From NCBI GenBank assembly GCA_963716145.1, contig OY970292.1, positions 597,171-661,170 on the forward strand: a stretch of 64,000 nt of DNA. Direction: 5' to 3'. The DNA is from Candidatus Levyibacteriota bacterium. Its GTDB lineage: Bacteria > Patescibacteriota > Microgenomatia > Levybacterales > UBA12049. Of this stretch, positions 1-64,000 are shown piece by piece (the stretch's first letter is position 1; each line of letters opens with the position of its first letter). The notes under the pieces were generated by a model. The model had not been told where the DNA came from, did not search any database, and was given only the letters and a program-made list of their open reading frames with translations. A program made the position numbers and the translations under genes.

Positions 1-1179
1 GCCGGCGCAAACCCCATGATCTTTGCAACCAATAATACCGAGCGGATGAGAATTGACTCCGCTGGCAATGTAGGAATCGGGACGACAGCACCAACTCATC
101 CATTACATGTCGTAGGTACCGCGATAAAAACAGAGCGTTTTGGAGGTACTCCCCAATTTATAGCAAGCAGATCAAATGGCACTTCCGCATCTCCTACTAT
201 AGTTTCAAACGCTAGTACTCTCTTTGCCTTAACGGGTCAGGGATATGATGGAGCAAACTACCAAAATGCTGCACAAATTTTATTTGAAGTGGATAACACC
301 CCTGGGATAGGTGACATGCCGGGTCGTATAAGCTTCTTCACCACCCCGGATGGCAGTTCTACTCCTCTAGCAAGAATGAGAATAGACTCTAACGGCAATG
401 TGGGAATCGGCACCACAACCCCAACCAGTTTCAAACTTGAAATAGCCGGTAACATCGGCCCTGAGGCAGATAACACACGGGACTTGGGATCAGCAAGCAG
501 AAGATGGGCAAATATTTACGCAACAAATATCACAGGGGCTGTGACACCAACAGGATTTACTCAAGGATCAGTAGCCTTTGCAGGAAGCGGTGGCACCCTG
601 AGCCAGGACAATGCCAACTTCTTCTGGGATGATACGAATAATCATCTAAATATTGGTACTACCAATACTACTGCGGGGGGCAGCTTAATCTTTGGCGCAT
701 CTGTTGCAAATATTTCGATGGATACGGTGAACGGGGCGGATAACAAACGTCTTCAACTTAGTAGTGGTGGCAATGATGGTTCAGTTACTCGCGGAGCTTA
801 TATAAATCTTTTTGGCAATGAAACGGCTTCTCAGCCAGGCTATTTAAGCCTTTTAGCCGGTGAGGGTGGAGATATCACCTTCTATGCTCAGCCGGTTGGA
901 TCGTTACTAGAACGAGTAAGAATTACAAGCGCGGGCAATGTGGGGATTGGGACCACCTCCCCTGCTGCTGTCTTGCATACTGCCTCAGATACCAATGGCA
1001 GCGTCCTTTTTTCACAAGCAAGCAACGATGCCAGCACTGCAAATGTAATCATCCGGAAATCAAGAGGAACTCATGCCGTGCCGCTTGATGTACAAAGCTC
1101 AGACGCTTTGGCAATTTTTGGCGGGCCGGTTACACTGGCGGCTCTTCCTGCAAGCTGCTCAATTGAAGGTGGAGGTTGA
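1..1179 (+). CDS. Giant repeat surface/tail-fibre-like protein, segment 1 (5'-partial; ORF 16..1179)
   Basis: Repeated module '...ERMRIDS(A/N)GNVGIGTT(A/S)P...' and 'FKLEIAGNIGPEADNTRDLGSASRRWANIY'. Open at the window start. The frame changes near 1120-1180 into the next ORF. Confidence 0.7.
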   Translation, partial: AGANPMIFATNNTERMRIDSAGNVGIGTTAPTHPLHVVGTAIKTERFGGTPQFIASRSNGTSASPTIVSNASTLFALTGQGYDGANYQNAAQILFEVDNTPGIGDMPGRISFFTTPDGSSTPLARMRIDSNGNVGIGTTTPTSFKLEIAGNIGPEADNTRDLGSASRRWANIYATNITGAVTPTGFTQGSVAFAGSGGTLSQDNANFFWDDTNNHLNIGTTNTTAGGSLIFGASVANISMDTVNGADNKRLQLSSGGNDGSVTRGAYINLFGNETASQPGYLSLLAGEGGDITFYAQPVGSLLERVRITSAGNVGIGTTSPAAVLHTASDTNGSVLFSQASNDASTANVIIRKSRGTHAVPLDVQSSDALAIFGGPVTLAALPASCSIEGGG

Positions 1180-4100
1180 CGGCGCATTTACTTCCGGAGT
1201 AAGACCACCGGGAAGAATCACATTCACTACCAGTAACAGCGCAGGCACATTAGCCGAGAAAATGAGAATCGACTCTACCGGCAATGTGGGCATTGGGACC
1301 ACTGCGCCAACGGCCCTGCTTCATCTGTTGACAACCGGTCCCACAGAAGCACGGCAAACAATTGAAAGTACGGGAGTCACAGGTCTGTCCACCTTGCACT
1401 TGCGTGCTGGTACAGATGACGTACAAGTCAGCTTAGATAGAGCAGGAAATTTATTCAGCATCACTAATTTAGCTACCGATCCTATTAATTATTTGTTTAA
1501 TGCAACAACAACCGGAACTGCAGGTAATCAGCTATATCTATCAACATCCGGTAATGTGGGAATCGGGACGACTACCCCAACCTCTTTCAAACTTGAAGTC
1601 GCAGGCAATATCGGACCTGAGGCTGATAATACAAGAGACTTAGGATCAGCTTCCCGCAGATGGGCGAATATTTATGGTACCAACTTTGTCGGAGCCATCA
1701 CCCCTACAGGCTTCACCCAAGGTTCAGTAGCCTTTGCAGGAAGCGGTGGCACCCTGACCCAAGACAATCCCAACTTTTTCTGGGATAATACTAATGATAG
1801 ATTGGGCATCGGTACGACCACTCCCGGTTCTCCGTTGAGCATCGCCAAGACCGGTATTTCCAGTTTGACTGCGCTCAACCTTGCTAATAATCAGGGAGGT
1901 TCAGGTGATACTATATCTATAGCAATGTCCAATGGCGGCGGTACCGGCGGACTTATCGGATACGAGCGCCAGGCAGCGGCATCGGGTGACTTTACTTTCT
2001 ATACCTCAGCAACCTTTGGGGGTGCCCTGGCCGAACGTATGCGCATCACCGCTGCAGGCAACGTGGGGATCGGGACGACGAGCCCAGCCACGGCATTACA
2101 TGTTGTAAATAATGTTAGAATTGAACGCTTTGGCAGTACACCAACACTGCAATTTAAACGGGCGAACGGAATAATTTCCTCGCCAACTGCACTAATTCTT
2201 GGAAATACAATTGCATCCTTTACGGCTCAGGGCTATGGTGATACAGGATATGGCGCGAACGTTACCGGTTCATTGATTTTTAAGGCAGCTGAAAACTTCA
2301 CTGATTCAGCACAGGGCACCTACTTTTATCTGGAAACAACCCCAAGTGGCAGCACTACTCCACTCGAAAGATTTCGCATTACCGACTCTGGCAACGTGGG
2401 TATTGGTACCACCACTCCAACCTCTTTCAAACTCGAAATAGCAGGCAATGTAGGGCCTGAGGCAGATAACACCAGAGATCTAGGAAGTGCTTCAAGACGA
2501 TGGGCTAATATATATGGCACCAACTTTGTCGGAGCTATCACTCCCTCAGGTTTTACCCAGGGTAGTGTTGCTTTTGCAGGAAGCGGAGGAACATTGACCC
2601 AAGACAATGCCAACTTCTTCTTCGATGATACGAATAACAGACTGGGGATTGGGACGACAGGGCCTACACGTGATCTCACTTTTGGAGCAACCAATTCGGG
2701 TATTTCGCTTGATACGGTTGACGGAACAGATAATAAGCGGTTGCAGATTATGGGAGGAGGAGATTCTACCTATCTCCGTGGTGCCTATATTAACTTATTT
2801 GGTAATGAATACGCAGGTAGTGGCGGCAACATGAACCTTGTAACTGGTCAGACTGGTTTCTTTTCAGTCTTAACCGGTACAGGACCTCTAGAGCGGATGC
2901 GTATTCAAACAGATGGCAATGTAGGGATTGGGACGACTGCTCCGAATAGTCTCTTATCTGTAGGAGCAACCAATAATTTTCAGGTCGACTCATCCGGACG
3001 GGTAGGTGTCTTTGGCGCACCAACAACTAGTGCGGGGATTACAATTGCCGGAACCCATCCAGGAAACGCAACCACCCTACAAGGGGCATCCTTTGATCCA
3101 ACCTTCCCGGCAACCACCACAAGCTCTGCAAATATTTTGGACATCCGGGGTGTTACAGCAGCTGCTTCTTTTACCGTAGGTAACTGGAGGGGTATTAATA
3201 TCACTTCACCAGTTATAGGAGCTGGCTCAGCAATCACCACCGCAACCGGCATCTCGGTTGGGGCGATTACAACAGGAACCAACAATGCTGGTGTTGTGAT
3301 TGGTGAAGCAACCGGTACGAATCAAAGCAATTTGGTTATTGGGCAAACTACTATCCCCACAGGAACTTACTCTATTTACAACGCTTCAACAGACCAAAAC
3401 TACTTCGCGGGCAACGTGGGGATCGGCACCACTGCTCCAGATGATCTTTTACACTTGAGTAAAAGTGCTGTAAGCGGTGTATCTACACTACAGTTTTCAG
3501 CAGGTAACACTACTACGGTAGGAAATTTCTCATCCGGAAGAATTGCTTCAGGACACACAACTACAAATTATCTTGGAGCATACCTTGACCTGCAATACCC
3601 AACAGCTGAAGACACGTTCACCACGGGCCTGAGACTTATAAACGGTAATGTAGGCATTGGGACGACGGCGCCAAGTGTGAAATTGCAAGTGGTAGATGCC
3701 GCCGCATTCCCACAAATAATGGTTTCCGATTCAATTGCAGACTCTGTAAATAAAAATGGCTGGATCGGCGTCCCTCATTATCTTAACAGTGAAGAAGCTT
3801 TTGGATTCATTTCAGGACGAGTTACCAGCACGACAAATGTAGTGCGCATTGGCGGCTCTTCCTCTGCATTAAACGCCGCTACTGATATACAATTCTATAC
3901 TGCCGCAAATAATACCACTACTACGGGAAACTTGGTAATGCTTATTAACTCTGCAGGCAACGTGGGGATTGGGACGACTACCCCCGGAGACATTCTCCAT
4001 ATCAAAAAGGATCAGGGAGTATCCACAGCGGCAACAATTGAAAATGCCAACGCAGGTGCCGGAGTAGTCGCGGAATTTATCGCGCGCAATGGTACCGGGA

Positions 4101-6139
4101 TTTCCGATGGTTTGAGAATGGGAGCTACCGGTACAGGCTACACTACCTCGGGTGTATTTCTCCAGGACGGCGCATATATCGACGCGGAGACTGCGCTTTC
4201 AGGAGGGCTTGGGATAGCCACCCGCGCCAATGCTCCGATCATGTTCGCGACAAATGGTCAAACCAATGAACGGATGCGTATAGCCGCAGACGGTAACGTA
4301 GGTATCGGCACGACTTCCCCACTCGCTCTTTTTTCTGTCGGTTCAACGTCTCAATTCCAGGTCTCCTCAGCAGGTCTTGTCACTTATGTTGATGGTACTA
4401 CCAATACAGCAACACATGTTTGTAAGAATTCATCAGGACAACTGGCACCGTGTAATACAACCGGTACAGGTGCAGCATTTGTACAGGGTGGTAATTCATT
4501 TGGCGCTCTTGCAACACTAGGAACTAATGATGCATTTGGGCTTGCTTTTGAGACAAGCGGCACAGAAAAGGTACGGATTGACACAAATGGCAACGTTGGC
4601 ATTGGGACGGCGGGACCATTGGCTAAACTTGATGTTCAGGGAGCACCTTATGGAGGCGGTATATGGTCTAGCACATTAAGATTATTTGACACGACTTCGG
4701 CTACGACTGGTACTGGGGCAGGTATTGACTTGGCCGGTTATACAAATGGAACATCGTCAACAGTAGATTTTGGAGCTGGCATAAAAGCAGCAAAGAGCAA
4801 TAGCACGGCAGATAACTACTCATTTGACCTGGCATTTTGGACGAGAACAAATGGGAGTGTTCCCGCCGAAGCAATGAGAATACTTCATAACGGCAACGTG
4901 GGAATCGGGACGACTGCGCCAGGATACAAGCTGGAAGTCAATGGCACAGGTTTTTATAATGGCAAACTCGCAATAAATAACGCAAGCTTGGGCAGCAATT
5001 CATTGGATGTTTTCACGGCGGCCGCTGGAACAATAGCTGCATTCCAAAGCAATGGGACCTTGTCTAATGGGACGCAACTTATGAGTGTTACTCATAGCAA
5101 CGCGGCTACTGGTACGGTAGAGGGTTTTCGAGCTAGTCTAAATTCTACTGTTAATGGTAACATCAGCGTATATCAGTCTGGCGCTGGAACAGCGAACTTC
5201 AATGCATTAGCTTTGAGCACAGGCGACGCACAGTCAACATATGGTCTGAATGGAGGACAATCATGGGCCGTGGGTCTGGATAATTCGGATAGCGACAGCT
5301 TCAAGATAGCGGGATCCACGGCGCTTGGAACAAGCGACTATTTGACCATTCTAACGGGCGGCAATGTGGGGATTGGGACGACCAGTCCTCTTGCCGGATC
5401 CAAACTCGATGTGAATGGAGATGTGAACTTGAGTGGTTCTAACAGGAGTCTATTCTTCCGCCGGGCAGATGGTACAACCCTCTCTGGGACTATTACTACC
5501 GATGGCGCCTCACAATTTGGGATTAATGCTAACAACAGCAGCTTAAATCTTTTATCACGCGATGGGGTGGCTATTACTCAAACAGCAGCAGTTACCGGTA
5601 GTCCACGGGCTCTTATCCTCACAGGTGCATCCCACACAAGCCTTACTGCTTCTGTTGAAGCGCCGGATGTGTTGCTTAACCTTGCGCGGGTGGTACAATT
5701 TTCAACCGGTGCCTTGGCTACTCAAAGAGCAGTCAGAGTCGATGCCCCAGCCTATGCATTTGTCGGTGCCTCCACCATAACTGACGCCACAACCCTTGCA
5801 ATCTCGGGTGCGCCTATATCCAGCACCAATGCAACAATTAGCAATTCTTCTGCTCTGAGAATATCAGCAGGCGCAGTAGGCTCAGGTACAACAAATGCCT
5901 ATGGTCTGTATGTCGATGCACCAACTGGAGCCACCAATAATTATGCAGCAACATTTGCTACCGGCAACGTGGGCATCGGAACCACAGCGCCAGCTGCTAA
6001 ATTGGGTTTTGCGGCTAGTACCGCATCAACAGACGGGATAGATTTTGGAAATGATATCAAGCTTTATAGAGGGCCGGCGGAGCGCTTTATTTCACAGCAG
6101 GAGGTGCGTCTAATACTTTTAGAAGCGCTTCGTCCGTAG
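1073..6139 (+). CDS. Giant repeat protein, segment 2 (1688 aa; frame-shifted continuation of segment 1)
   Basis: More than 20 copies of the GNVGIGTTxP module. The first ~40 aa and last ~25 aa of the ORF look out of frame, so the true junctions are internal (around 1175 and 6065). Confidence 0.7.
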   Translation: MPCRLMYKAQTLWQFLAGRLHWRLFLQAAQLKVEVDGAFTSGVRPPGRITFTTSNSAGTLAEKMRIDSTGNVGIGTTAPTALLHLLTTGPTEARQTIESTGVTGLSTLHLRAGTDDVQVSLDRAGNLFSITNLATDPINYLFNATTTGTAGNQLYLSTSGNVGIGTTTPTSFKLEVAGNIGPEADNTRDLGSASRRWANIYGTNFVGAITPTGFTQGSVAFAGSGGTLTQDNPNFFWDNTNDRLGIGTTTPGSPLSIAKTGISSLTALNLANNQGGSGDTISIAMSNGGGTGGLIGYERQAAASGDFTFYTSATFGGALAERMRITAAGNVGIGTTSPATALHVVNNVRIERFGSTPTLQFKRANGIISSPTALILGNTIASFTAQGYGDTGYGANVTGSLIFKAAENFTDSAQGTYFYLETTPSGSTTPLERFRITDSGNVGIGTTTPTSFKLEIAGNVGPEADNTRDLGSASRRWANIYGTNFVGAITPSGFTQGSVAFAGSGGTLTQDNANFFFDDTNNRLGIGTTGPTRDLTFGATNSGISLDTVDGTDNKRLQIMGGGDSTYLRGAYINLFGNEYAGSGGNMNLVTGQTGFFSVLTGTGPLERMRIQTDGNVGIGTTAPNSLLSVGATNNFQVDSSGRVGVFGAPTTSAGITIAGTHPGNATTLQGASFDPTFPATTTSSANILDIRGVTAAASFTVGNWRGINITSPVIGAGSAITTATGISVGAITTGTNNAGVVIGEATGTNQSNLVIGQTTIPTGTYSIYNASTDQNYFAGNVGIGTTAPDDLLHLSKSAVSGVSTLQFSAGNTTTVGNFSSGRIASGHTTTNYLGAYLDLQYPTAEDTFTTGLRLINGNVGIGTTAPSVKLQVVDAAAFPQIMVSDSIADSVNKNGWIGVPHYLNSEEAFGFISGRVTSTTNVVRIGGSSSALNAATDIQFYTAANNTTTTGNLVMLINSAGNVGIGTTTPGDILHIKKDQGVSTAATIENANAGAGVVAEFIARNGTGISDGLRMGATGTGYTTSGVFLQDGAYIDAETALSGGLGIATRANAPIMFATNGQTNERMRIAADGNVGIGTTSPLALFSVGSTSQFQVSSAGLVTYVDGTTNTATHVCKNSSGQLAPCNTTGTGAAFVQGGNSFGALATLGTNDAFGLAFETSGTEKVRIDTNGNVGIGTAGPLAKLDVQGAPYGGGIWSSTLRLFDTTSATTGTGAGIDLAGYTNGTSSTVDFGAGIKAAKSNSTADNYSFDLAFWTRTNGSVPAEAMRILHNGNVGIGTTAPGYKLEVNGTGFYNGKLAINNASLGSNSLDVFTAAAGTIAAFQSNGTLSNGTQLMSVTHSNAATGTVEGFRASLNSTVNGNISVYQSGAGTANFNALALSTGDAQSTYGLNGGQSWAVGLDNSDSDSFKIAGSTALGTSDYLTILTGGNVGIGTTSPLAGSKLDVNGDVNLSGSNRSLFFRRADGTTLSGTITTDGASQFGINANNSSLNLLSRDGVAITQTAAVTGSPRALILTGASHTSLTASVEAPDVLLNLARVVQFSTGALATQRAVRVDAPAYAFVGASTITDATTLAISGAPISSTNATISNSSALRISAGAVGSGTTNAYGLYVDAPTGATNNYAATFATGNVGIGTTAPAAKLGFAASTASTDGIDFGNDIKLYRGPAERFISQQEVRLILLEALRP

Positions 6140-7101
6140 GTTGGTTCTTTGATGAAAGCAATAGACGGGGTGGAGTGGGGCTAACAGGTGCCTTGGCCGG
6201 TACAGGTGCCAGTAACGCAACCTTCTCAGTCAGTGGAATTTCAAACCGCAATCTAATTGCCATTCAGGGAGTAGCCGGTCAAACTGCAGACCTTTTTGTG
6301 GTACAAAACAACACTCCAACAACACTATTTGATATCACAGCAGCCGGCAACGTGGGGATTGGCACCACAGGACCAGCTGCACTTCTACATGCGCTCATAA
6401 GTAACAGCGCAAATCCAGTGGCTCTTTTTGAAAGAACTACATCAAGCACCGGGTCATTGGGAATTAATTTCGGTTCCGGTATCTCAAGTTTTGCCAGCGT
6501 TAACGCAATCCGTTTCTCTACTGGCTCAACTGCCGGGACAGGCGGCACAGAACAACTGAGAATTGATACAACCGGCAACGTCGGTATCGGGACGACTGCA
6601 CCGCAGGCCAAACTTCATATTGATCAAGGTAATGTGATAATAGGCGCAGCCTCAGGTGGGACTCAAGATCTTATATTTCGTGAAGACACAACCAATTTAA
6701 TGGGATTTCGCTACCAAGGAGGTCAGTCAGGGAATCCATTAGATATCTATAACTTTCAGACTGCTGCAACACTTGTCAGGATCAAGGAGGATGGCAACGT
6801 TGGCATCGGGACGACTGCTCCCACCTACCGCTTGTCAACTCTCAATAGTGTCTCTACTGCAGGTTCAGCAGTCTCTGCTATCACCAACACCAATACCACA
6901 GACAGTGCCAATACAGTCACTTTGAGGTTAAATACCGGTGTCACATCAACTACTACAAACGCCCGATTCGTAACTTTCTATGCAGGATGCACCACAGAAA
7001 ACTGCGCCGGTACAGCTGTGGGGAACATCTCCATAAACAACGGCAATGTTGCCTACAACACAGGAGAGGGCCGACTTTGCCGAAAGAATGTCGGTTGGTG
7101 A
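6070..7101 (+). CDS. Giant repeat protein, segment 3 (ORF 6175..7101; frame open from 6070)
   Basis: Same GNVGIGTT repeats. Frame 1 is open from 6070 and reads as plausible protein ('GGASNTFRSASSVGWFFDESN'). Confidence 0.6.
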   Translation, partial: RAGGALYFTAGGASNTFRSASSVGWFFDESNRRGGVGLTGALAGTGASNATFSVSGISNRNLIAIQGVAGQTADLFVVQNNTPTTLFDITAAGNVGIGTTGPAALLHALISNSANPVALFERTTSSTGSLGINFGSGISSFASVNAIRFSTGSTAGTGGTEQLRIDTTGNVGIGTTAPQAKLHIDQGNVIIGAASGGTQDLIFREDTTNLMGFRYQGGQSGNPLDIYNFQTAATLVRIKEDGNVGIGTTAPTYRLSTLNSVSTAGSAVSAITNTNTTDSANTVTLRLNTGVTSTTTNARFVTFYAGCTTENCAGTAVGNISINNGNVAYNTGEGRLCRKNVGW

Positions 7102-8389
7102 GTCAACGGAAGCAGGAGATGTGATTGGGGCTGGCTCCTCAGGCAATAGAAAATCACAATCCGGTGACCGGATAATTGGAGTAATTTCAGATAGCGCGGG
7201 CTTTATCGGAAACGATAAGGAAGGACTTGATAAAGCAACTCATCCTGTTGTCGGACTCCTGGGACAGATCCGGACCAAAGTCGCCACAGAATCAGGCACT
7301 ATCAAAAAGGGCGACTTCTTAAGCCTCTCAGCAACTGCCGGTGTTGCTAGGAAGGCAACTTCAGGGGGAGAAGTATTGGGAACAGCTCTAGAAGACTTTC
7401 CTTCGGCAGGCTCAGGACAAGTTGGGGGGGTGGGCAAAATAATGGTGTTGGTCCGCCCGGGCTGGTATATGCCTGATGTTGCTATGACGGATCAGGGACA
7501 GGTGAGCTCAACAAATGAATCTCAAATTGCTGATCTGGGCCTGCCTCTTATTGCTTCTCCCGCAAATAATAATCCTGCCTCCCCTGCCCCAAGCGGGTCG
7601 CTTTCCGATCTGGCAAACCGTGTAACAAAACTTGAAGAACGTGTCACTGCGAGCGGTAGCGCGGCAGTCTCTCCAGACCTGCCTGCCGGCGAGGCAGGGA
7701 TTGCTTCGTCGTCTGCAACTTCTCGCAATGACAATGAGATAGCTGACCTTAATTCTAAATTCTTAACTCTTAATTCTAAGATTGCCTCTCTTGAAGCTGA
7801 TCTAGCTCTATTTGCAAGCGGCTCAGCAGTTCTAAGCCAATCCCCCGCTGCTTCATCAGCTGCAGAACTTGGGCTTGATAAGCTTGATGCAAAAGATGTT
7901 GCTATTACCCGCACTCTCTCAGTTGGCGGAAGAACAACCTTGGGAGATGTTGGAATAACAGGAAAGATGAACATAGGTCTACTCTCAATTGAGGGACTGT
8001 CAGAAAATGGGTTTGCCACAATTAACACAACCTCAGGTCCTCTAAAACTTCAATCAGATTCCGTAAATGGAGTTGATATATTGAATGGAAAAGTAGTGAT
8101 ATCAACCAATGGAGATATTAAGACTCAGGGAGAAATTACTGTTAAGAAAGTAAATGTTGATACAGAAGATGTAGCGGGAGCGTCACTGGGAACAGCCACA
8201 ATAGTGGATGGCGAAACGATAGTTTCAGTTCAGACATCTGCCCTGACCGATAAATCTAAGGTCTTTGTGCAGGCAGTTGATAGTCCGGTAGCAACCGCTG
8301 TTAAGAAAACAGGCGCTGACACATTTGATATCAAAATACCGGCAGCAGTAAATAATGATCTAAGACTCAATTGGTGGATAGTTAATTAA
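7046..8389 (+). CDS. Giant repeat protein, C-terminal segment (coiled-coil plus C-terminal beta-rich domain)
   Basis: Heptad-like 'LSDLANRVTKLEERV...IADLNSKFLTLNSKIASLEADLALF' followed by a C-terminal globular domain. Overlaps segment 3 in another frame. Confidence 0.6.
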   Translation: MLPTTQERADFAERMSVGESTEAGDVIGAGSSGNRKSQSGDRIIGVISDSAGFIGNDKEGLDKATHPVVGLLGQIRTKVATESGTIKKGDFLSLSATAGVARKATSGGEVLGTALEDFPSAGSGQVGGVGKIMVLVRPGWYMPDVAMTDQGQVSSTNESQIADLGLPLIASPANNNPASPAPSGSLSDLANRVTKLEERVTASGSAAVSPDLPAGEAGIASSSATSRNDNEIADLNSKFLTLNSKIASLEADLALFASGSAVLSQSPAASSAAELGLDKLDAKDVAITRTLSVGGRTTLGDVGITGKMNIGLLSIEGLSENGFATINTTSGPLKLQSDSVNGVDILNGKVVISTNGDIKTQGEITVKKVNVDTEDVAGASLGTATIVDGETIVSVQTSALTDKSKVFVQAVDSPVATAVKKTGADTFDIKIPAAVNNDLRLNWWIVN

Positions 8390-8428: not shown

Positions 8429-8806
8429 ATGAAACAAAAAACAAACATATATAATCTTGAGGATAGAACAGCCAAACTTGGAGAAGCAACAATCTTATTC
8501 TGTAAGAGCTTAAAATTGGATACGATTCTTGCTCCTCTAGTAAATCAATTAGTGAGATCAGCAACATCGGTTGGAGCGAATTATATGGAAGCTAACGGCG
8601 CAAGTTCTAGAAAGGATTTTCAAAACAAAATATTTATTTGCAAAAAGGAGTCTCAAGAAACCAAACATTGGTTGAGAATGATAGCCGTACATAGTCCTGA
8701 TAGGAAAGAAGAAATTAGAGTCTTGTGGAGCGAGACGCAGGAGCTAACTCTCATATTTCAAAAAATAAACACTTCTTTAAGAGAAAAATCTTTAAAAATT
8801 GAATAA
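8429..8806 (+). CDS. Four-helix-bundle protein (23S rRNA intervening-sequence protein family)
   Basis: 125 aa. 'SATSVGANYMEANGASSRKDFQNKIFICKKESQETKHWLRM' matches the conserved core of that family. Confidence 0.7.
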   Translation: MKQKTNIYNLEDRTAKLGEATILFCKSLKLDTILAPLVNQLVRSATSVGANYMEANGASSRKDFQNKIFICKKESQETKHWLRMIAVHSPDRKEEIRVLWSETQELTLIFQKINTSLREKSLKIE

Positions 8807-49556: not shown

Positions 49557-50139
49557 ATGCTGGATTTTAAACCCATTTTAGCTATTTTCACAGTAATATT
49601 AACTTTTGTTGGCTATGTTCCTTACATCCGGGATATACTTAAAGGCAAAACCAAACCTCATGTATACAGTTGGTTCGTTTGGACCTTGACCTCAGCCATT
49701 ACTTACGGTTTGCAGATTGAGGGGGGGGCAGGAGTAGGCTGCCTGGGTTACATTGGCAATTGTAATTGGTTTATCTTTTATATTTTTGCTGAGTTTGCGA
49801 AGCGGCAAAAAAGATATAACACTGCCGGACACGATATTTTTAATCCTTGCATTTGCTGCTATCTACTTATGGCTGGTAGCCAAGCAGCCTGTCTTGTCAA
49901 TAATTCTTGTTACGACAATTGACATGCTGGCTTTTGCTCCGACCATCAGAAAGTCCTGGAATAAACCCCACTCCGAAACACTCTTTCTATATAAATTAAG
50001 CACTTTCCGCCATGCGTTAAGCATCTTTGCCCTACAGCAATATAGCATCGTTACATGGCTTTACCCCGCCAGCTGGGCTGTAGCAAACCTAATATTTAGT
50101 ATTTTGCTGATAATAAGACGGAGGAATATACTAAAATAA
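49557..50139 (+). pseudogene. Membrane protein in two overlapping frames (ORFs 49557..49922 and 49753..50139) with a G8 tract at 49721..49728
   Basis: The first ORF has two transmembrane helices, then turns Cys-rich and low-complexity after the G8 run. The second frame from TTG 49753 encodes ~3 further transmembrane helices. This suggests an indel or a pair of indels. Confidence 0.4.
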
Positions 50140-57619: not shown

Positions 57620-58375
57620 ATGAAGCATAAATTTAAAATGTTTAAAAATTTAGTAATTGAAAATTCACTGAAAATTGAAAATTGTAAATTGAAAATTCTT
57701 ATTATTTGCTTATTTGCTTATTTGCTTATTTGCTTATTCTCACCAAAAGCCTTTGCGTCGACTTCCTCAAACAACAATTACAATATCGATTTGCAAGACA
57801 TAGATATTAATCCGGAAAGGTCTGGAGTGGCCCCCCAACCCTACCAGATGGTTGCTACTGAGCCGCTAGATAAGACACCCGACATTACCTTCGGTAACTC
57901 GGCAATAACTTTTTCAACAGACAATAATCTTATTGATTTTGGGATACTGTCTCCGGCTAATCCTGTTGCCAGAACCGTCAATTTATCTATAATAAATGCT
58001 CAAACGCAGTATCAGCTTTTGGCATTTGAGGATCACCCGCTGTCAACAGGAAGCACCATAATTCCCGATACGACTTGCGAGGATGGGCAGTGCTCGGAGA
58101 TAAAAGAAAGCCAATGGATCAACAATTTAACTTACGGATTCGGATTCCGCTGTGACGATATCACAGACTCAGCGTGTATTGGATTTTCAACTGATAATAA
58201 CTACAAGCAATTTGCAGACAGTGCCAAGCAGGAAAAACAGCAGGCAATAATCACAAGCTTGCTAAATTATGGAGATAATAAGGCTAAGCTTACCTTTAAA
58301 TTAAATGCTGCAGGAACCCAAAAACCCGGGGTTTACACTAATACAATCACCTTTATAGCCGTACCGAATTATTAA
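57620..58375 (+). CDS. Secreted hypothetical surface protein (251 aa)
   Basis: Signal peptide encoded partly by a (gcttattt)x4 repeat at 57702..57738. Cys-containing mature domain. The true start is probably downstream of 57620. Confidence 0.45.
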   Translation: MKHKFKMFKNLVIENSLKIENCKLKILIICLFAYLLICLFSPKAFASTSSNNNYNIDLQDIDINPERSGVAPQPYQMVATEPLDKTPDITFGNSAITFSTDNNLIDFGILSPANPVARTVNLSIINAQTQYQLLAFEDHPLSTGSTIIPDTTCEDGQCSEIKESQWINNLTYGFGFRCDDITDSACIGFSTDNNYKQFADSAKQEKQQAIITSLLNYGDNKAKLTFKLNAAGTQKPGVYTNTITFIAVPNY

Positions 58376-58408
58376 TGTGTATATAGTATTTATTGTCGTT
58401 GATATAGT

Positions 58409-59419
58409 ATGAAAAGCGCAAACTTCAAGCTTCAAATTTGGGTTATTTGTTTATTGGGTTATTTGTTTATTGGGTTATTCTCGCAAGCTAAGGCTCAAGC
58501 GGTTAGCTTGCGGGTTTACCCTTCTCTAATAAAAATCAATGCCGAGTCTCCAAGCGATCTTAACACAAATATAAATATAGAAAACTTGTCAGACAAAGCG
58601 GTCGAGATTGAGACCCAAATTAAATTATTTAAAACACAAGAAAAAGAAAACGGTCAGGTTGAATATTTAAAAAGTAGTGAAAATCCAAATGAAATTTTAA
58701 ATAGAATACAAATTCTTAGTAAGGATAATGTGATTACAGGACTGAGTCTTGGCCCAAAACAAAAGACGTCTTTAAAACTCAAAATTTCACTAAATGAAAA
58801 TGATCTTGGTAATGACTATTACTTCTCAGTCATATTTATAACCAAATCAAAAGCTTCTCAAGTACAAAATGGTTCCGCCGCATCAATTCAAAGTAGTTTC
58901 TCCAAAATCAATATGGGCGTTGCGGCAAACGTGTTATTGTCAGCAGGGTCTGCCCATTCGACAAGCTCAGGACAGACTTCAGCCGCAATTGAAGAGTTTT
59001 CCTCTCCCCAATATGTTGAAAAAGGACCGCTGCCTTTTACTATCAAGATTCACAATAACGGATCAACCTATATTAGCCCCAAAGGGAGGATAGAAATTAC
59101 CAACATGTTCGGGCAAAGGATTGGCAAGGTTGATCTGCCCGCTCAAAATATTCTGGCTAATAGCAGCAGGTATCTTGCTACGCAAGATCAACTTATAACT
59201 TATAACTCATCACTTATAACTCCGAAGGCTGTTTGGCCTGAAAAATTTTTACTTGGATTTTATAAATCTACCTTAGTAGTTGAATTATCTGATAAAGGAC
59301 CAACGCTTGACAAAACAATTCAATTCTTTGCCTTTCCATCTAAATTCATATTGGTACTAATTATTGCTATAGTAATATTTTTGCTAATCAGAAGAAGAGT
59401 AAAGCAAAAAATGCTATAA
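58409..59419 (+). CDS. Cell-surface protein with signal peptide and C-terminal transmembrane anchor (336 aa)
   Basis: Signal peptide encoded by a (gggttatttgtttatt)x2 repeat at 58440..58480. C-terminus 'FILVLIIAIVIFLLIRRRVKQK'. Confidence 0.5.
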   Translation: MKSANFKLQIWVICLLGYLFIGLFSQAKAQAVSLRVYPSLIKINAESPSDLNTNINIENLSDKAVEIETQIKLFKTQEKENGQVEYLKSSENPNEILNRIQILSKDNVITGLSLGPKQKTSLKLKISLNENDLGNDYYFSVIFITKSKASQVQNGSAASIQSSFSKINMGVAANVLLSAGSAHSTSSGQTSAAIEEFSSPQYVEKGPLPFTIKIHNNGSTYISPKGRIEITNMFGQRIGKVDLPAQNILANSSRYLATQDQLITYNSSLITPKAVWPEKFLLGFYKSTLVVELSDKGPTLDKTIQFFAFPSKFILVLIIAIVIFLLIRRRVKQKML

Positions 59420-59690
59420 GGTTAATTTGCTATCTGACAAGCCTTACTCTTCAACCATTGTATTTTCTTCTTACAGTTAGAATTTTCATAAGTAAATTTT
59501 GCATTTTTTCCAGGCGTGAATAAATTATTGTTAAGTTTAGTTTTGAGTATTCCCCCGTGAAAATAAATGAAAACCAAATGTGTACATACTTTTGATTTTG
59601 TGCATTGACAAGTTTATTAATATATGTCGTAATGGAGCTAGACAAACTATGACAGGTTATGTCATTTAGGCTCTGAGACCTATTCTGCCC

Positions 59691-60269
59691 ATGACAAACA
59701 ATTTATTAACGATTCAAAAAGCCGCGGAATTATTGGGTATTTCTACCAGAACTCTAAAGCGCTATGAGGAGAGAGGTCTCATAACACCCCAGCGCACTCC
59801 CGGAGACCAGCGTAGATATACACTAGAGGACATTGAAATATTGTCCAAGCGCACAAATGGAAATATAGCTCCTTCTTCAGTAATCGCTCCAGTGGCACAA
59901 TCAGTAGAATCACCACATTTAGCTTCCCAAACCAGGTCAGCAAAGCGTGTCTTCTGGTATCTGCTCATTCTCTTGCTGCTGATAGGAGGAAGCTATTGGA
60001 TTTTAAAAACTAACACAGATGCTCTGCGTGAGCAGCAGGCACAAAACCAGTTGGAGCAGCAGGCACTTGAGGATAAGGTGGATAAGTTAAGAGGTAATTC
60101 CTATACTTCCAACCTAACAGCCAAAGATCTCAGAGTAGCCCAGAATATAAGTACGCAGGATCTGCTTGTTGAGAACAACCTGACTGTTGGGGGAAGCTCC
60201 AACTTACAATATCTGAATGTGTCTGGAGGCACTACCCTGGCAAATCTGACTGTTACAAATGGCCCCTAA
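59691..60269 (+). CDS. MerR-type HTH, transmembrane helix and coiled-coil segment; probable N-terminus of the downstream giant protein
   Basis: 'LLTIQKAAELLGISTRTLKRYEERGLITPQR...RRYTLEDIEIL' (MerR/HTH_17-like), then 'VFWYLLILLLLIGGSYWIL', then 'NLTVGGSSNLQYLNVSGGTTLANLTVTNGP*'. The frame two positions over continues without a stop into ORF 60359. Confidence 0.5.
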   Translation: MTNNLLTIQKAAELLGISTRTLKRYEERGLITPQRTPGDQRRYTLEDIEILSKRTNGNIAPSSVIAPVAQSVESPHLASQTRSAKRVFWYLLILLLLIGGSYWILKTNTDALREQQAQNQLEQQALEDKVDKLRGNSYTSNLTAKDLRVAQNISTQDLLVENNLTVGGSSNLQYLNVSGGTTLANLTVTNGP

Positions 60270-61645
60270 ACCTTCCCAACGGCTCAATTGATAACTCGGA
60301 ATTAGTCAATTCAACCCTAACCTACAATGCGGGAAGCGGTTTAACAGGTGGAGGAATCTTGGCACTTGGCGGAACAGCGACTTTTGACATTGGAGCGGGA
60401 AATGGCATACAGGTTGAGGATGACAAAATAAGCGTTATATACGGCGAAAGCGCCAATACTTCGGTTGTGGGTAATCAAACCATTGAGATTGCAGCCGGAA
60501 GCAATCTAGCTGGTGGCGGAGTACTCACTCTTGGTGCGGGAGGAACACTGACTCTTGAGACTATATCAAACCCTATATTTTCCACATCAGTTACCTCTCC
60601 CCTTCTATATCTGACTAACTCGGGCTTTACTACAGTTCTTCAAACTACGACTTTGACTGCTGATCAAACCATTACACTTCCTGATGATACCGGAGAGGTC
60701 TGTATCTCAACCGGTAATTGCGCGGGACTTGGCGGTACTATAGCAGGTGCAGGTACGCCAAATCGAGTTGCAAAATTCAATACTTCGAGTACTATAAGCG
60801 ATTCCAGCATCAATGATCTATATTCTGCAGTTGCTATGACAATTGATGCATCCGGGAACGTGGGAATCGGCAATACAGCTCCTTCTTATCAACTTGAGGT
60901 AGGAAGCGGAGCTTTCGGAGCTGGCAGGCTTAACCTGAATGGGTCTCAGCCATTCCTGAGAATCCAGGATACCGACGCCGGCTTTGCCACAAACTGGCTT
61001 TTTCAGGCTTTCAATAACCGCCTGCGGCTTCTCAATAATGACGGTGCTACAGAGCCTCTCTCAATATTGACCAATGGCAACGTGGGCATCGGAACGACAG
61101 CACCCTTGAGTAATTTTCATGTATCAAGCGCTACTGGCACAACAGGAAATATCCTTCTGGATACTTATGGAGGAAACGGACAGGTAAGCATTAGGAGGGC
61201 TAACGGCACACCATCAAGTCCTACCGCAGTTCTAAGCGGTGAAGGCATTGGGGCTTTCGGGGCACGAGGTTATGGTGCTACAGGATTTAGCGGTGGCAAT
61301 AGAGCGCGTATTCTTTTCTCAGCTGCTGAGAACTGGACTGACACAGCTCAGGGAACATTCTTGGATCTACAGACCACACCTACCGGGAGCACTACTATTA
61401 CCAGCCGATTGCGGATTACTGCAGATGGCAACGTGGGTATTGGCACTAATACCCCATCCTCCTTCAAACTCGAAATAGCAGGCAACATCGGGCCTGAGGC
61501 GGATAATACTCGCAACCTGGGATCGGCTATCAGACGCTGGGCGAATATTTATGCGACCAACATAACTGGCGCAGTTACTCCCACAGGATTTACTCCAGGA
61601 AGTGTCGTCTTCGCGGGTACGGGTGGTCCACTTAACACAAAATAA
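60262..61645 (+). CDS. Giant repeat protein (second locus), segment 1 (frame open from ~60262; ORF 60359..61645)
   Basis: GNVGIGTT modules and 'FKLEIAGNIGPEADNTRNLGSAIRRWANIYATNITGAVTPTGF', paralogous to 421..600. Confidence 0.65.
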
Positions 61646-62999
61646 CGCGAATTTCTTCTGGGATGATTCAAATGCCAGATTGGGGATAGGGACAACTGCG
61701 CCTAGTACGCAGTTAAATATTGTAGCTAATGGATCATCTGCTCAAGCTCATATTGATACTTATGGAAATAGTAATGCTACTGTACTTTCTTTAAGGCGTG
61801 CCAAAGGGTCTTTCACTACGCCTACTGCTGTTATTTCCGCAGATTTGCTTGGAAGATTAAGTTTCCGCGGTTATGATGGCAGCGCATTCTCCAATAACAG
61901 AGTAAGCATAGATGGTTCAGCTGCCGAAGCATGGACAACGGGCGCCAATGGTACTTACTTGAGCTTTCTTACTACCTCACTGGGAACAACCACAACTTCT
62001 GAAAGAATGCGCATCGATGCCACCGGCAATGTGGGGATCGGGACGACAGCGCCTGGATACAGCCTGGAAGTATTACGGGATGGGAGCACTGCGAATTTAG
62101 GTTTGACCAATTATGGTTCGGTGACTCCCGCCATAAACGGGCGCCGCGCAAGAGGAAGTGTCGCTTCTCCTTTGGCTCTGGCAGTAGATAATGGCATACT
62201 CAGCCTGAATGGTGGCGGATATGATGGAACAAGCTTCACTGATATTGGTGCTCGCATTTTATTTTCTGCTGCAGAAGCATGGACCGTAAGTACCCATGGA
62301 ACATATATGCGGTTTGATACAACACCAATTGGGAGCACAACCGTAGCTGAGCGTATGCGGATAGACGCAGCCGGCAACGTGGGAATCGGCACCGTGACCC
62401 CAACGTCCTTCAAACTTGAAGTTGCTGGCAATGTAGGACCTGAGGCGGATAATACCCGGGACTTGGGAAGCGCATCGCGACGATGGGCCAACATATATGC
62501 TACCAATTTTGTCGGAGCCATTACCCCAACAGGATTTACCCCAGGTTCAGTAGTCTTTGCCGGCCCGGGAAGAAGCCTTTCTCAGGATAATCCCAACTTC
62601 TTCTGGGATGATACAAATAACAGGTTGGGTATAGGGACCACTGCGCCTGCGGGAATTTTGGATCTCACGGGTTCAGCGGGAGTGACCCAAAATCTGACCA
62701 GAAGCTCCGCAGATACTAGTGCGGCAAATATCCGATTCAGAAAAGACCGTGTCGCCGCCATTGTGCAAAACGGTGATGAATTGGGATACCTCGATTTTAG
62801 TGGATATGACGGCGGGACATATAGGAGAGGTGCTTATATTGCGTCATTTGTAGATGGTGTTCCCGGCGCATCTGATATGCCGGGGAACTTGGCTTTTGCC
62901 ACCACTCCAGATGGTGCTGTAGCTTCGATAGAGCGTATGAGAATAACCAATGCCGGCAACGTAGGGATCGGGCACCACCGCGCCTGCGGCACTTCTTGA
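61602..62999 (+). CDS. Giant repeat protein (second locus), segment 2
   Basis: The junction with segment 1 needs a 1-nt correction near 61628 ('cttaAcac'). Same repeat family. Confidence 0.65.
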   Translation: MSSSRVRVVHLTQNNANFFWDDSNARLGIGTTAPSTQLNIVANGSSAQAHIDTYGNSNATVLSLRRAKGSFTTPTAVISADLLGRLSFRGYDGSAFSNNRVSIDGSAAEAWTTGANGTYLSFLTTSLGTTTTSERMRIDATGNVGIGTTAPGYSLEVLRDGSTANLGLTNYGSVTPAINGRRARGSVASPLALAVDNGILSLNGGGYDGTSFTDIGARILFSAAEAWTVSTHGTYMRFDTTPIGSTTVAERMRIDAAGNVGIGTVTPTSFKLEVAGNVGPEADNTRDLGSASRRWANIYATNFVGAITPTGFTPGSVVFAGPGRSLSQDNPNFFWDDTNNRLGIGTTAPAGILDLTGSAGVTQNLTRSSADTSAANIRFRKDRVAAIVQNGDELGYLDFSGYDGGTYRRGAYIASFVDGVPGASDMPGNLAFATTPDGAVASIERMRITNAGNVGIGHHRACGTS

Positions 63000-64000
63000 A
63001 GTTGCTTCAAGTACAAATCCCAGCCTTACCGGTACAGCCTGGACACAGCTCCTCAATGATACGCGCAGCGCTACTATCGGGGTAGGTGGAAGTTTGCTCT
63101 TCAAGGGGTATAAAACAGCACAGACAAATTCGGCTGTATTTGCCGGTATATGGGGACAAAAAGAAAATTCTACATCAGGTAACGAAGCTGGAACACTCCT
63201 CTTTTACACCAATCCTAATACAGGCGTTTTGACTGAAAGAATGAGAATTGATTCAAACGGTAACGTGGGCATCGGTACCGCCACCCCATCCTCCTTCAAA
63301 CTCGAAATAGCAGGCAACATCGGGCCTGATGGAGATTTGACTCGTGATCTTGGATCAGCTTCAAAGAGATGGAACAATTTGTATGTTGGCACAGTTGTCG
63401 GAGGAGCAACATCATCTGGAAATATCAATCCGTCAGCTGATAACACATATGACCTGGGTACTACATCTCTCCGCTGGAGAAAAGTTGAGGTAGGACCTGG
63501 CTCACTTGAACTTACTTCCACAACCGGAACCAGTGGTGCAGGAGCAAATTACACTCTGGGTAAGCTTGAGTTTGCCACCAACAACCTCAAGCTTTCAACC
63601 AGTGCGGTCGGATCTGGTAACACCGGTACACTCCAGCTGACAACAGGCGCAAATGTAGGGCTGAACATTGATACATCAGGCAACGTGGGCATTGGGACGA
63701 CTTCTCCCAATCTTGGAGGAATTGCGGGCACGGCATTGACCATCTTGGGAAGCAGTACAAATCGTGGAACGTTAGAGTTAGGCAGCACCACTGCTACAAC
63801 AGGGCCTGTAGGTGATATTACCGGATTTAGTGGTTCTACGGCTACACAAAAAATTCAATTCGCAGGAGATGGAGTAAATACCGATGCCGGGTATATTAAG
63901 TTTTTCACCAAAGCAACAAGTACGGCCATAGCTGAAAGAATGAGAATAGACACAAATGGCAACGTGGGTATTGGGACTACAAATCCTACTTATCAACTTC
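62983..64000 (+). CDS. Giant repeat protein (second locus), segment 3 (3'-partial; reading frame 1, no Met start, so not in the ORF track)
   Basis: Frame 1 reads 'GTTAPAALLEVASS...ERMRIDSNGNVGIGTATPSSFKLEIAGNIGPD...ERMRIDTNGNVGIGTTNPTYQL' without stops to the window end. An extra 'c' at ~62979 separates it from segment 2. Confidence 0.6.

Follow-up and report, generated by a model that had tools for sequence, protein, structure and literature searches.

The window analysed here is a 64,000-nucleotide (nt) stretch of the genome of a Candidatus Levyibacteriota bacterium (contig OY970292.1, positions 597,171 to 661,170), and its right end carries what appears to be a broken gene for a giant surface protein. 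The gene opens with a 192-amino-acid (aa) open reading frame (ORF), 59691..60269, with an ATG start and a TAA stop at 60267-60269 in the window's ORF list. The original prediction described this ORF as a MerR/HTH_17-like DNA-binding helix-turn-helix (HTH) followed by one transmembrane (TM) helix, a coiled coil and an end already in the style of a giant protein, and Pfam, hydropathy and AlphaFold2 bear out each of these parts. Ahead of the ORF lie a promoter-like element and a short array of repeats, and behind it run several kilobases of tail-fibre-like repeats spread over three further frame segments (Table 1). The host lineage lends the locus some interest: much of bacterial diversity belongs to Patescibacteria (the candidate phyla radiation, CPR), whose cultivated members all live attached to other microbes (PMC11623550). 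Control of the very large surface proteins of CPR bacteria is poorly understood, and the gene family to which this locus belongs offers a concrete, testable circuit with a defined domain, a DNA motif and a predicted surface-protein regulon.

Table 1. Features of the giant gene and its leader, in window coordinates
Feature	Position	Strand	Details
Upstream tandem element	59557..59575	+	GTGAAAATAAATGAAAACC; two TGAAAA(T/C) copies, in place of the family's two GATAWGATTA copies
Promoter-like element	59605..59633	+	TTGACA-17 nt-CGTAAT, TGT of extended -10 type ahead of the -10 box; single occurrence in the 64-kb window
Operator-like array	59638..59665	+	CTAGACA 59638-44, TATGACA 59648-54 (10 nt on), inverted TGTCAT 59660-65; begins 5 nt past the -10 box
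CTGCCC abutting the 5' side of the ATG	59685..59690	+	no Shine-Dalgarno sequence
Fragment 1 of the giant gene	59691..60269	+	head, linker, TM helix, coiled coil and first beta repeats; 192 aa
MerR/BldC-type winged HTH, predicted cytoplasmic	59703..59858	+	aa 5-56; Pfam, PDB profile search, Foldseek
Single TM helix, predicted signal-anchor, N-in/C-out	59949..60005	+	aa 87-105; hydropathy, AlphaFold2
Predicted extracytoplasmic coiled-coil helix, continuous with the TM helix	60006..60095	+	aa 106-135; AlphaFold2; kept in P0041
Junction 1	60263..60266	+	C4 run within GGCCCC (GGCCCC|TAA, 60261-60269); adding one C takes frame 0 to 2
Fragment 2, tail-fibre-like repeats	60266..61645	+	frame 2; PHROG tail fibre phrog_9942, E 6.8e-18
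Junction 2	61625..61631	+	GGTCCAC, shift near 61628; removing one base takes frame 2 to 0, reading ...FAGTGGHLTQNNANFFWDD...
Fragment 3, tail-fibre-like repeats	61627..62999	+	frame 0; phrog_9942, E 1.6e-53, 183 bits
Junction 3	62970..62972	+	GGG in ATCGGGCAC; removing one G takes frame 0 to 1
Fragment 4	62971..64000	+	frame 1; continues past the window end

One gene in four fragments

The frame two positions over from the 192-aa ORF is free of stops from 60173 to 61645, as originally noted. At junction 1 the switch point was placed by homology, and inserting one C yields ...TVTNGPLNLPNGSIDNSELV... / ...LANLTVTNGPLNLPNGSIDNSELVNSTLTYNAGSG... The one-base shift proposed near 60265 does therefore join the first two frames, but a single repaired base would not restore the gene, because two further shifts lie downstream, near 61628 and 62970. 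For junction 2 the in-frame comparators are a paralogous module, which reads FAGPGRSLSQDNPNFFWDD, and the homologous protein P0041, which reads FAGVGGTLTQDNPNFFWDD; repair of junction 3 brings back the recurrent motif GNVGIGTTAP. With the three single-base repairs in place a stop-free ORF of 1436 codons spans 59691-64000, so that the product, whose gene continues past the window, has at least 1436 aa. The ORF that starts at 60359 appears to have no export signal of its own, since it opens with TTG and its N-terminus is not hydrophobic (best 15-residue mean hydropathy 0.75). Exact look-ups of ORFs 60359..61645 and 61602..62999 matched no database record. Reading frames and homology strongly support a single gene from which both the HTH-TM ORF and the repeat ORFs behind it derive, and the ancestral and functional form is a single gene whether the frameshifts are real or artefactual.

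The N-terminal head resembles BldC

Pfam places residues 5-51 in MerR (PF00376; 51.5 bits, cut-off 28.2), MerR_1 (PF13411; 44.7 bits, cut-off 21.6) and HTH_17 (32.4 bits, cut-off 27), and finds no match in the head to Trans_reg_C, the OmpR/PhoB-type winged HTH (wHTH). An AlphaFold2 model of the 192-aa ORF, built from 26 aligned sequences, gives the wHTH (aa 1-56) a block-mean predicted local distance difference test (pLDDT) score of 86-97 at residues 1-50 and of 79 at residues 51-60. Residues 57-82, with a pLDDT of ~55, are read as a disordered linker. Beyond them the model has one unbroken helix from 83 to 135 (block pLDDT 91-96 at residues 91-130) that comprises both the TM helix and the coiled coil, and the tail past this helix is beta-rich and of low confidence. 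The sole hydrophobic segment, VFWYLLILLLLIGGSYWIL, has a mean Kyte-Doolittle value of 2.16 and three K/R residues in its N-flank; because this flank is basic and no signal peptide precedes the HTH or the TM helix, the topology is predicted to be N-in/C-out.

All top Foldseek matches to the head model are MerR-family DNA complexes, and the model has the beta-alpha-alpha-wing-alpha order of the wHTH fold. The solved structure closest to the family profile is BldC (6AMK and 6AMA; E about 1e-12), followed by classical MerR regulators, GlnR/TnrA and RacA, and the head model superposes on BldC with a root-mean-square deviation of 1.5-1.7 Å over about 50 residues. BldC of Streptomyces, the founder of the BldC family of MerR-like regulators, is a protein of 68 residues without dimerisation or effector domains, which binds variable numbers of direct repeats as head-to-tail multimers (optimal site CAATTCGGACAATTCGGACA); it contacts DNA through K26, T27, R30, W31, H46, R47 and R48, and its G44 lies at the protomer interface (PMC5859096). 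In the alignment K26, T27, R30, W31, G44, R47 and R48 of BldC fall on R20, T21, R24, Y25, G38, R41 and R42 of the window protein. The most conserved residues of the family as a whole are K/R20, T21, R24, W/Y25, G38, Q/H40, R41 and R42, all of them kept in the window protein.

A widespread family of HTH-headed giant proteins

Relatives had to be sought with some sensitivity. A word-indexed protein search with the 192-aa ORF, for which the word index and the E-value scale were limiting, matched only the ORF itself, and a two-sequence head alignment scanned against a genome contig collection that does not include the source genome gave a Streptomyces MerR gene and nothing else. A search with the repaired N-terminal 480 aa led to P0036, a protein of 590 aa with the same head, TM helix and beta repeats in a single frame. 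A profile of two heads was then run exhaustively against 1.84 billion representatives and matched 6750 of them at E<=1e-3 and 551 at E<=1e-10. Exactly one TM helix is predicted at residues 60-300 in 105 of the best 150 matches; 29 of these 150 are at least 1000 aa long, 26 of them with a TM helix in the first 300 residues. The large members include P0041 (2723 aa), P0044 (3145), P0068 (4725; GenBank MEK7573542.1), P0070 (5468) and P0186 (5727). A metagenome scan added 80 loci, 72 with a TM helix, and among them ORFs of at least 1000 aa at 26 and of at least 3000 aa at nine; these lengths are lower bounds, as 69 of the 80 ORFs leave the 10-kb flank.

P0041 is particularly informative because it is the positional ortholog of the window gene: its locus, L005, carries a leucyl-tRNA synthetase (LeuRS) 78% identical to that of the window together with orthologs, in conserved order, of the two genes that precede the giant gene (44% and 50% identity). 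The intact P0041 shares 66% identity with the repaired window protein along residues 1-404, and its reading frame runs on across junction 1 (TVTNGPVVLPSGSIDNSELV / TVTNGPVVLPSGSIDNSELVNSSLTYTAGSG). The same locus holds a second head-bearing gene, of 7506 aa.

The original prediction had called for a topology analysis and for a comparison with orthologous giant genes. The former gives the one TM helix at aa 87-105, N-in/C-out; the latter finds the N-terminal HTH-TM arrangement in P0041 and in many other proteins of 1000-7500 aa. DNA-binding domain, TM helix and extracytoplasmic region stand in one polypeptide in P0041, P0044, P0068 and at 72 of the 80 metagenome loci; in the window as it stands the combination is present only in the 192-aa stub. 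The thought that the arrangement might be an odd fusion created by domain shuffling does not survive the occurrence of the same HTH-TM-giant architecture in so many intact proteins. Judged from these sequences, the family is widespread in metagenomes and its predicted architecture is conserved. It also has soluble relatives with two to about eight tandem copies of the same HTH (P0045, P0052, P0053, P0066, P0067, P0039 and P0050), which are candidate partners or competitors for direct-repeat arrays. For annotation the family holds a warning, since public records label surface proteins of 4700 aa “MerR family transcriptional regulators”, and broken copies are split into a small “regulator” and hypothetical proteins.

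Could the 192-aa ORF nevertheless be complete in itself, a small membrane-bound MerR-like regulator followed by separate genes? Gene callers do annotate the pieces separately, the stop at 60267 is reproducible, and HTH-TM proteins of 150-350 aa occur in the family. The last 50 aa of the ORF, however, already belong to the fibre sequence, which runs on unbroken in the next frame, the downstream ORFs have neither an ATG start nor a signal peptide (the one at 60359 has its TTG), and the positional ortholog is one protein, so that a stand-alone regulator is very improbable. Programmed ribosomal frameshifting would join the fragments in another way, and junction 1 has a suitable look: it reads C_CCC_TAA, where a tRNA-Pro in the P site could re-pair in the -1 frame beside the stop. 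The gene would need three shifts of mixed direction (-1, +1, +1), and junctions 2 and 3 have no slippery sequence. Moreover, the ortholog is in frame at junction 1, the in-frame readings of junctions 2 and 3 are backed by P0041 and by paralogous repeats inside the protein, and the second giant gene of the window has further, unrelated shifts. We reject programmed frameshifting as scarcely credible.

A tail-fibre-like ectodomain

The repeats outside the membrane match phage tail fibre families, phrog_9942 most strongly (Table 1) and phrog_18345 with E 2.1e-32. Relatives bear Peptidase_S74/G2 chaperone, lectin-like or hydrolase domains, and several homologs carry PF13884 or PF11962. The C-terminus of the 59691 gene lies beyond the window; those of P0041 and of the window's other giant gene match pre-neck appendage and Peptidase_G2 models weakly. 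By its sequence the ectodomain looks like a phage tail fibre and not like a sensor domain. Phage tail fibres and tailspikes with a C-terminal chaperone (Peptidase_S74/G2; the phi29 pre-neck appendage) share repeat homology with the family, as well as the Peptidase_S74/G2 domains found in some members. Unlike them, the gene is chromosomal and adjoins LeuRS, and its product has an N-terminal TM anchor in place of a virion and a DNA-binding head.

The window's other tail-fibre-like giant gene, of which only the C-terminal part is present (1..8389, + strand), is split over four frames; at least four 1-base shifts break it, a pair near 1123-1150 and single ones near 6071 and 7068. Its C-terminus shares 58-59% identity with the C-terminus of P0041 and scores 23.1 bits against Peptidase_G2 (cut-off 25), with a weak match to the phi29 pre-neck appendage. 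A small gene, 8429..8806, follows it, as in L005, where the counterpart has a 23S_rRNA_IVP match.

A conserved promoter and leader repeat array

Upstream sequences were compared for 71 unique regions, and repeats were counted in the 150 nt upstream of 67 unique family genes. Ahead of most family genes, from many unrelated metagenomes, the elements follow the same order: a tandem GATAWGATTA, a promoter, repeats, and a CTGCCC at the ATG. The tandem element consists of two copies of ~11 nt just 5' of the -35 box. The family promoter is TTGACA-N17-nGTAAT with a TG(n) extension and a conserved spacer; the spacer of the window promoter, AGTTTATTAATATATGT, is itself conserved between loci. TTGACA is present in 65 of the 71 regions and TTGACA-N16-18-nnTAAT in 37. 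CTGCCY ends 0-2 nt before the ATG in 45 of the 71, and a Shine-Dalgarno-like sequence is found in only two. Most other genes of the window also have no Shine-Dalgarno sequence, and several show TATAAT-like boxes about 7-12 nt before the ATG; these may be leaderless.

Between promoter and start codon lies the repeat CAAA(C/G)TT(G/A)GACA(A/T)A, with the core AAACTTRGACA (AAACTTGGACAAACTTAGACA, AAACTTGGACA), in one to five copies that are often followed by an inverted one. The first site begins 4-36 nt (mostly 11-26) past the -10 box, in the initially transcribed region, and successive sites are 10, 12, 22, 32 or 54 nt apart, near whole helical turns. On the sense strand TTRGACA has a density of 8.46 per kb in the family leaders, compared with 0.134 per kb in the other 598 kb of those loci and 0.37 per kb ahead of 322 genes from outside the family, an enrichment of 23- to 63-fold. 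At least one canonical site is present in 54 of the 67 leaders and at least two in 40. An RNA hairpin does not seem to be the common denominator, because the repeats are conserved as sequence, including in arrays made of direct copies only; the window leader matches no Rfam family. Over the whole window TTRGACA is rarer than expected, with eight occurrences against 18.7 +/- 4.1 in shuffled sequences (100 of 100 shuffles have at least eight).

Other clusters of the motif lie in intergenic regions shared with divergent genes for a conserved secreted protein of ~250 aa. This protein is encoded upstream on the opposite strand at L034, L037, L042, L044, L048, L051, L052, L061, L066, L069, L076 and L002 and resembles, by eye only, the C-terminal region of the giant proteins. 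At a different set of loci the divergent position is taken by a gene for a ~310-aa cytoplasmic protein. One locus, L022, has at 1400..1500 a second copy of the promoter and repeat array, along with the first ~11 codons of the HTH gene, upstream of a gene for a 727-aa product with a hydrophobic, signal-like N-terminus, which suggests that the regulatory module can be copied to other genes.

A fibre that may control its own gene

The best explanation of the whole, and one that we hold to be reasonably probable, is a single gene for a membrane-anchored giant fibre whose BldC-like head autoregulates through the leader repeats. From 59691 to beyond 64000 the DNA would encode a type II (N-in/C-out) giant surface fibre of a Patescibacteria-type bacterium, with a cytoplasmic BldC-like winged HTH of about 55 aa, a disordered linker, and a TM helix that leads to a coiled coil outside and to kilobases of tail-fibre-like repeats. 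The cytoplasmic tip looks built to bind the repeats ahead of its own gene. Tethered to the membrane, the head would bind the AAACTTRGACA repeats head-to-tail, in the fashion of BldC, and repress its own gene, paralogous genes and the divergent gene for the secreted protein; the resulting negative feedback would match fibre production to the amount already anchored in the membrane. The three 1-base indels that interrupt the gene here would be either consensus errors or the marks of a recent loss-of-function allele. If true, the BldC mode of DNA binding extends to membrane-tethered proteins.

The head and BldC are both wHTHs without the coiled coil or effector domain of MerR proteins, the contact residues are conserved, and the optimal BldC site resembles the AAACTTGGACAAACTTAGACA arrays of the family leaders; head-to-tail binding by the family heads is inferred, the evidence in cis being the phased direct-repeat arrays of 54 of the 67 leaders. 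The differences are that BldC is a free cytoplasmic protein of 68 residues, whereas the domain here opens a membrane protein that can reach about 7500 aa, and that His46 of BldC is usually Gln in the family. Classical MerR regulators are further removed. They have a long cytoplasmic coiled-coil dimerisation helix and an effector domain where the window protein has the linker (aa 57-82) and the TM helix, with its coiled coil outside the membrane, and their operator is a palindrome within an over-long promoter spacer of 19-20 bp, whereas the family has a 17-nt spacer and mostly direct repeats downstream of the -10 box.

Membrane-bound one-component regulators such as ToxR, CadC and TcpP are a known class in which single-pass topology is commonest, according to a survey whose main text mentions neither MerR-type heads nor Patescibacteria (PMC10269533). 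The window protein shares with them the cytoplasmic DNA-binding domain, the single TM helix and the extracytoplasmic part in one polypeptide. Theirs, however, are OmpR-type wHTHs with small sensory periplasmic domains, and here a MerR/BldC-type head is joined to a giant tail-fibre-like ectodomain. The likeness to a one-component regulator drawn in the original prediction holds for the architecture, which is seen in intact relatives; surface sensing would be a further step, and the ectodomain looks like a tail fibre rather than a sensor. As a proposal, the one-component transmembrane regulator is plausible on sequence grounds, and is strengthened because the head is BldC-like and conserved repeat arrays stand in the genes' own leaders; transmission of an outside signal by the fibre is an alternative to the feedback model. 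What is new here is the BldC-type head on a membrane-anchored giant fibre, the BldC-family head and the membrane-bound regulator being known in themselves. Literature searches found no description of MerR/HTH-headed giant CPR proteins, of BldC-like membrane proteins or of BldC-type heads on giant fibres, and a preprint on giant genes mentions no HTH heads (10.1101/2023.11.21.568195).

Several observations weigh against this explanation of the locus. The NCBIfam model for BldC, NF033787, gives the head 29.1 bits, below its cut-off of 77, and the repeat period of 10-12 bp differs from the 9 bp of BldC. No canonical site is present at 13 of the 67 loci, and the repeats of the window itself form a diverged ++- array (CTAGACA/TATGACA) that falls below a position weight matrix score of 9 for the majority motif; the leader of the L005 ortholog is likewise diverged, with CCTAGACAT twice at the equivalent place. 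The residue at the position of BldC Lys26, K or R in the family, does not track the motif cleanly: all three R-type loci are without canonical sites, yet related K-type loci share those variant sites. Another factor, such as the soluble tandem-HTH paralogs, could bind the repeats. Lastly, the two family matches that carry a taxon name are both Patescibacteria, and the taxonomy of the family rests on these two.

In a rival reading the head does not regulate transcription, and the leader repeats would be bound by another factor. RodZ is an established protein of the HTH-TM-ectodomain type with a non-regulatory head, its HTH binding MreB, and a head of this sort would be a module for protein interaction or retention. 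RodZ resembles the window protein in its cytoplasmic HTH, TM helix and outside domain, and differs in that its HTH, the one that binds MreB, is of the Xre type. RacA, which is among the structural matches, would instead suggest a tether between chromosome and membrane; its MerR-like wHTH ties DNA to the membrane or pole, but RacA is soluble and dimeric and recognises GC-rich palindromes. The soluble tandem-HTH paralogs could then be the true regulators. Against a non-regulatory head stand the DNA-contact residues of BldC, which are the most conserved positions of the family, and the repeats, which resemble BldC's site and co-occur with head-bearing genes, and we consider such a head unlikely.

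Could the head act in cis while the protein is still being made? On leaving the ribosome, the first ~55 residues would bind the array, which lies about 30-50 bp ahead of their start codon, with the polymerase still at work on the 8-22-kb gene; insertion of the TM helix into the membrane would follow. Gene, mRNA and nascent chain would in this way be held at the translocon, an enforced transertion, and re-initiation would be blocked until the fibre is finished or released. Taken whole, this co-translational scheme of a nascent head on its own repeats is quite a long shot. In a variant of this idea, tension on the fibre or its contact with a host would change operator occupancy; if true, host-attached bacteria would have a mechanical connection running directly from cell surface to chromosome.

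Are the frameshifts real?

The question for the window is whether its giant genes are broken in the organism or only in the consensus. Eight disruptions are inferred in the window, all of them 1-base indels; the repaired codons, about 4200 in number, contain no in-frame stop. Five disruptions fall within GGNCC (GGGCC/GGCCC at 1123, 6071, 7068 and 60261, and GGTCC at 61625), although GGNCC with 2 nt on either side covers only 2.3% of the giant genes (P about 1e-7). The two giant genes hold seven of the eight (P 8e-5 if indels are spread uniformly, 6e-4 if they scale with G/C runs), whereas 21 GGGCC sites in ordinary genes and 47 A/T runs of at least 7 nt have no shift. The contig L001 from Logan, a k-mer assembly of run ERR11593400, is 100% identical to window positions 58318-61497 (3180 nt), junction 1 included; if the reads of this run are noisy long ones, the agreement is not independent evidence. 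Two technical causes were considered and set aside: repeat collapse or mis-polishing is unlikely, as the paralogous modules are only 71-78% identical at the nucleotide level, and general homopolymer error is rejected in view of the 47 unshifted A/T runs.

The odds stand about even that the shifts in both giant genes are consensus errors and that the organism makes the full-length fibre. An example would be long-read basecalling errors at methylated GGNCC, to which a mixture of strains that differ in hypervariable surface genes may have added. The indel-only spectrum and the clustering at GGNCC speak for errors of this kind. So does the character of the run: housekeeping genes such as LeuRS are intact on no Logan contig of ERR11593400, and the contigs recovered are about 3 kb long where the genome is in one contig of 1.14 Mb, which fits a long-read run. 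The perfect agreement of the Logan contig across junction 1, the unshifted A/T runs and GGGCC sites, the concentration of indels in the giant genes and the low identity of the modules argue on the other side. The opposing account, to which we give only slightly less than an even chance, is that the shifts are real and the giant fibre genes have been recently inactivated or switched off, leaving only the 192-aa HTH-TM stub expressed. An independent assembly from raw reads reproduces the stop, the indels are concentrated in two dispensable-looking giant genes, and truncating variants occur elsewhere in the family. Neutral decay, however, would not usually leave indels alone, tied to a single 5-base motif, and eight indels with zero nonsense codons amount to an extreme indel-to-substitution ratio. 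Should the shifts be real, production of the stub would go on and the operator could remain occupied by it; in either case the GGNCC-linked indels are of interest because they may mark a systematic error or a mutational hotspot in genomes of this kind.

The truncating variants just mentioned are of several kinds. In L002 (at 2479) and L003, which come from separate assemblies, a Trp codon of a repeated discoidin-like module is replaced by an in-frame TAG; L016, whose ORF ends at 1075 aa, differs from L017 (at least 2370 aa) by an 8-bp indel; and a deletion of 76 bp between repeats sets L075 apart from L068. Family genes seem to have lost the ectodomain repeatedly while keeping the HTH-TM part. 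The eighth disrupted site of the window is in a gene for a small multi-pass membrane protein (49557..50139, + strand), apparently split near 49745 (GTAGGCTGCC), just downstream of an intact G8 run and not inside it.

Neighbouring genes

Directly upstream of the giant gene on the + strand, 57620..58375 and 58409..59419 encode proteins with hydrophobic, signal-like N-termini, the latter with a match to the WxL-interacting-protein PGBD (22 bits, below the cut-off) and a C-terminal TM anchor; both are syntenic with L005 and may belong to the same surface-protein locus. The peptide STSSGQ occurs both in LeuRS (~57096, - strand) and in the 336-aa gene product (~58958, + strand), encoded by an identical 17-nt core, TCGACAAGCTCAGGACA. 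In LeuRS it sits in an in-frame insertion of ~13 aa that is absent from the L005 ortholog, and the element may be a short repeat inserted in frame.

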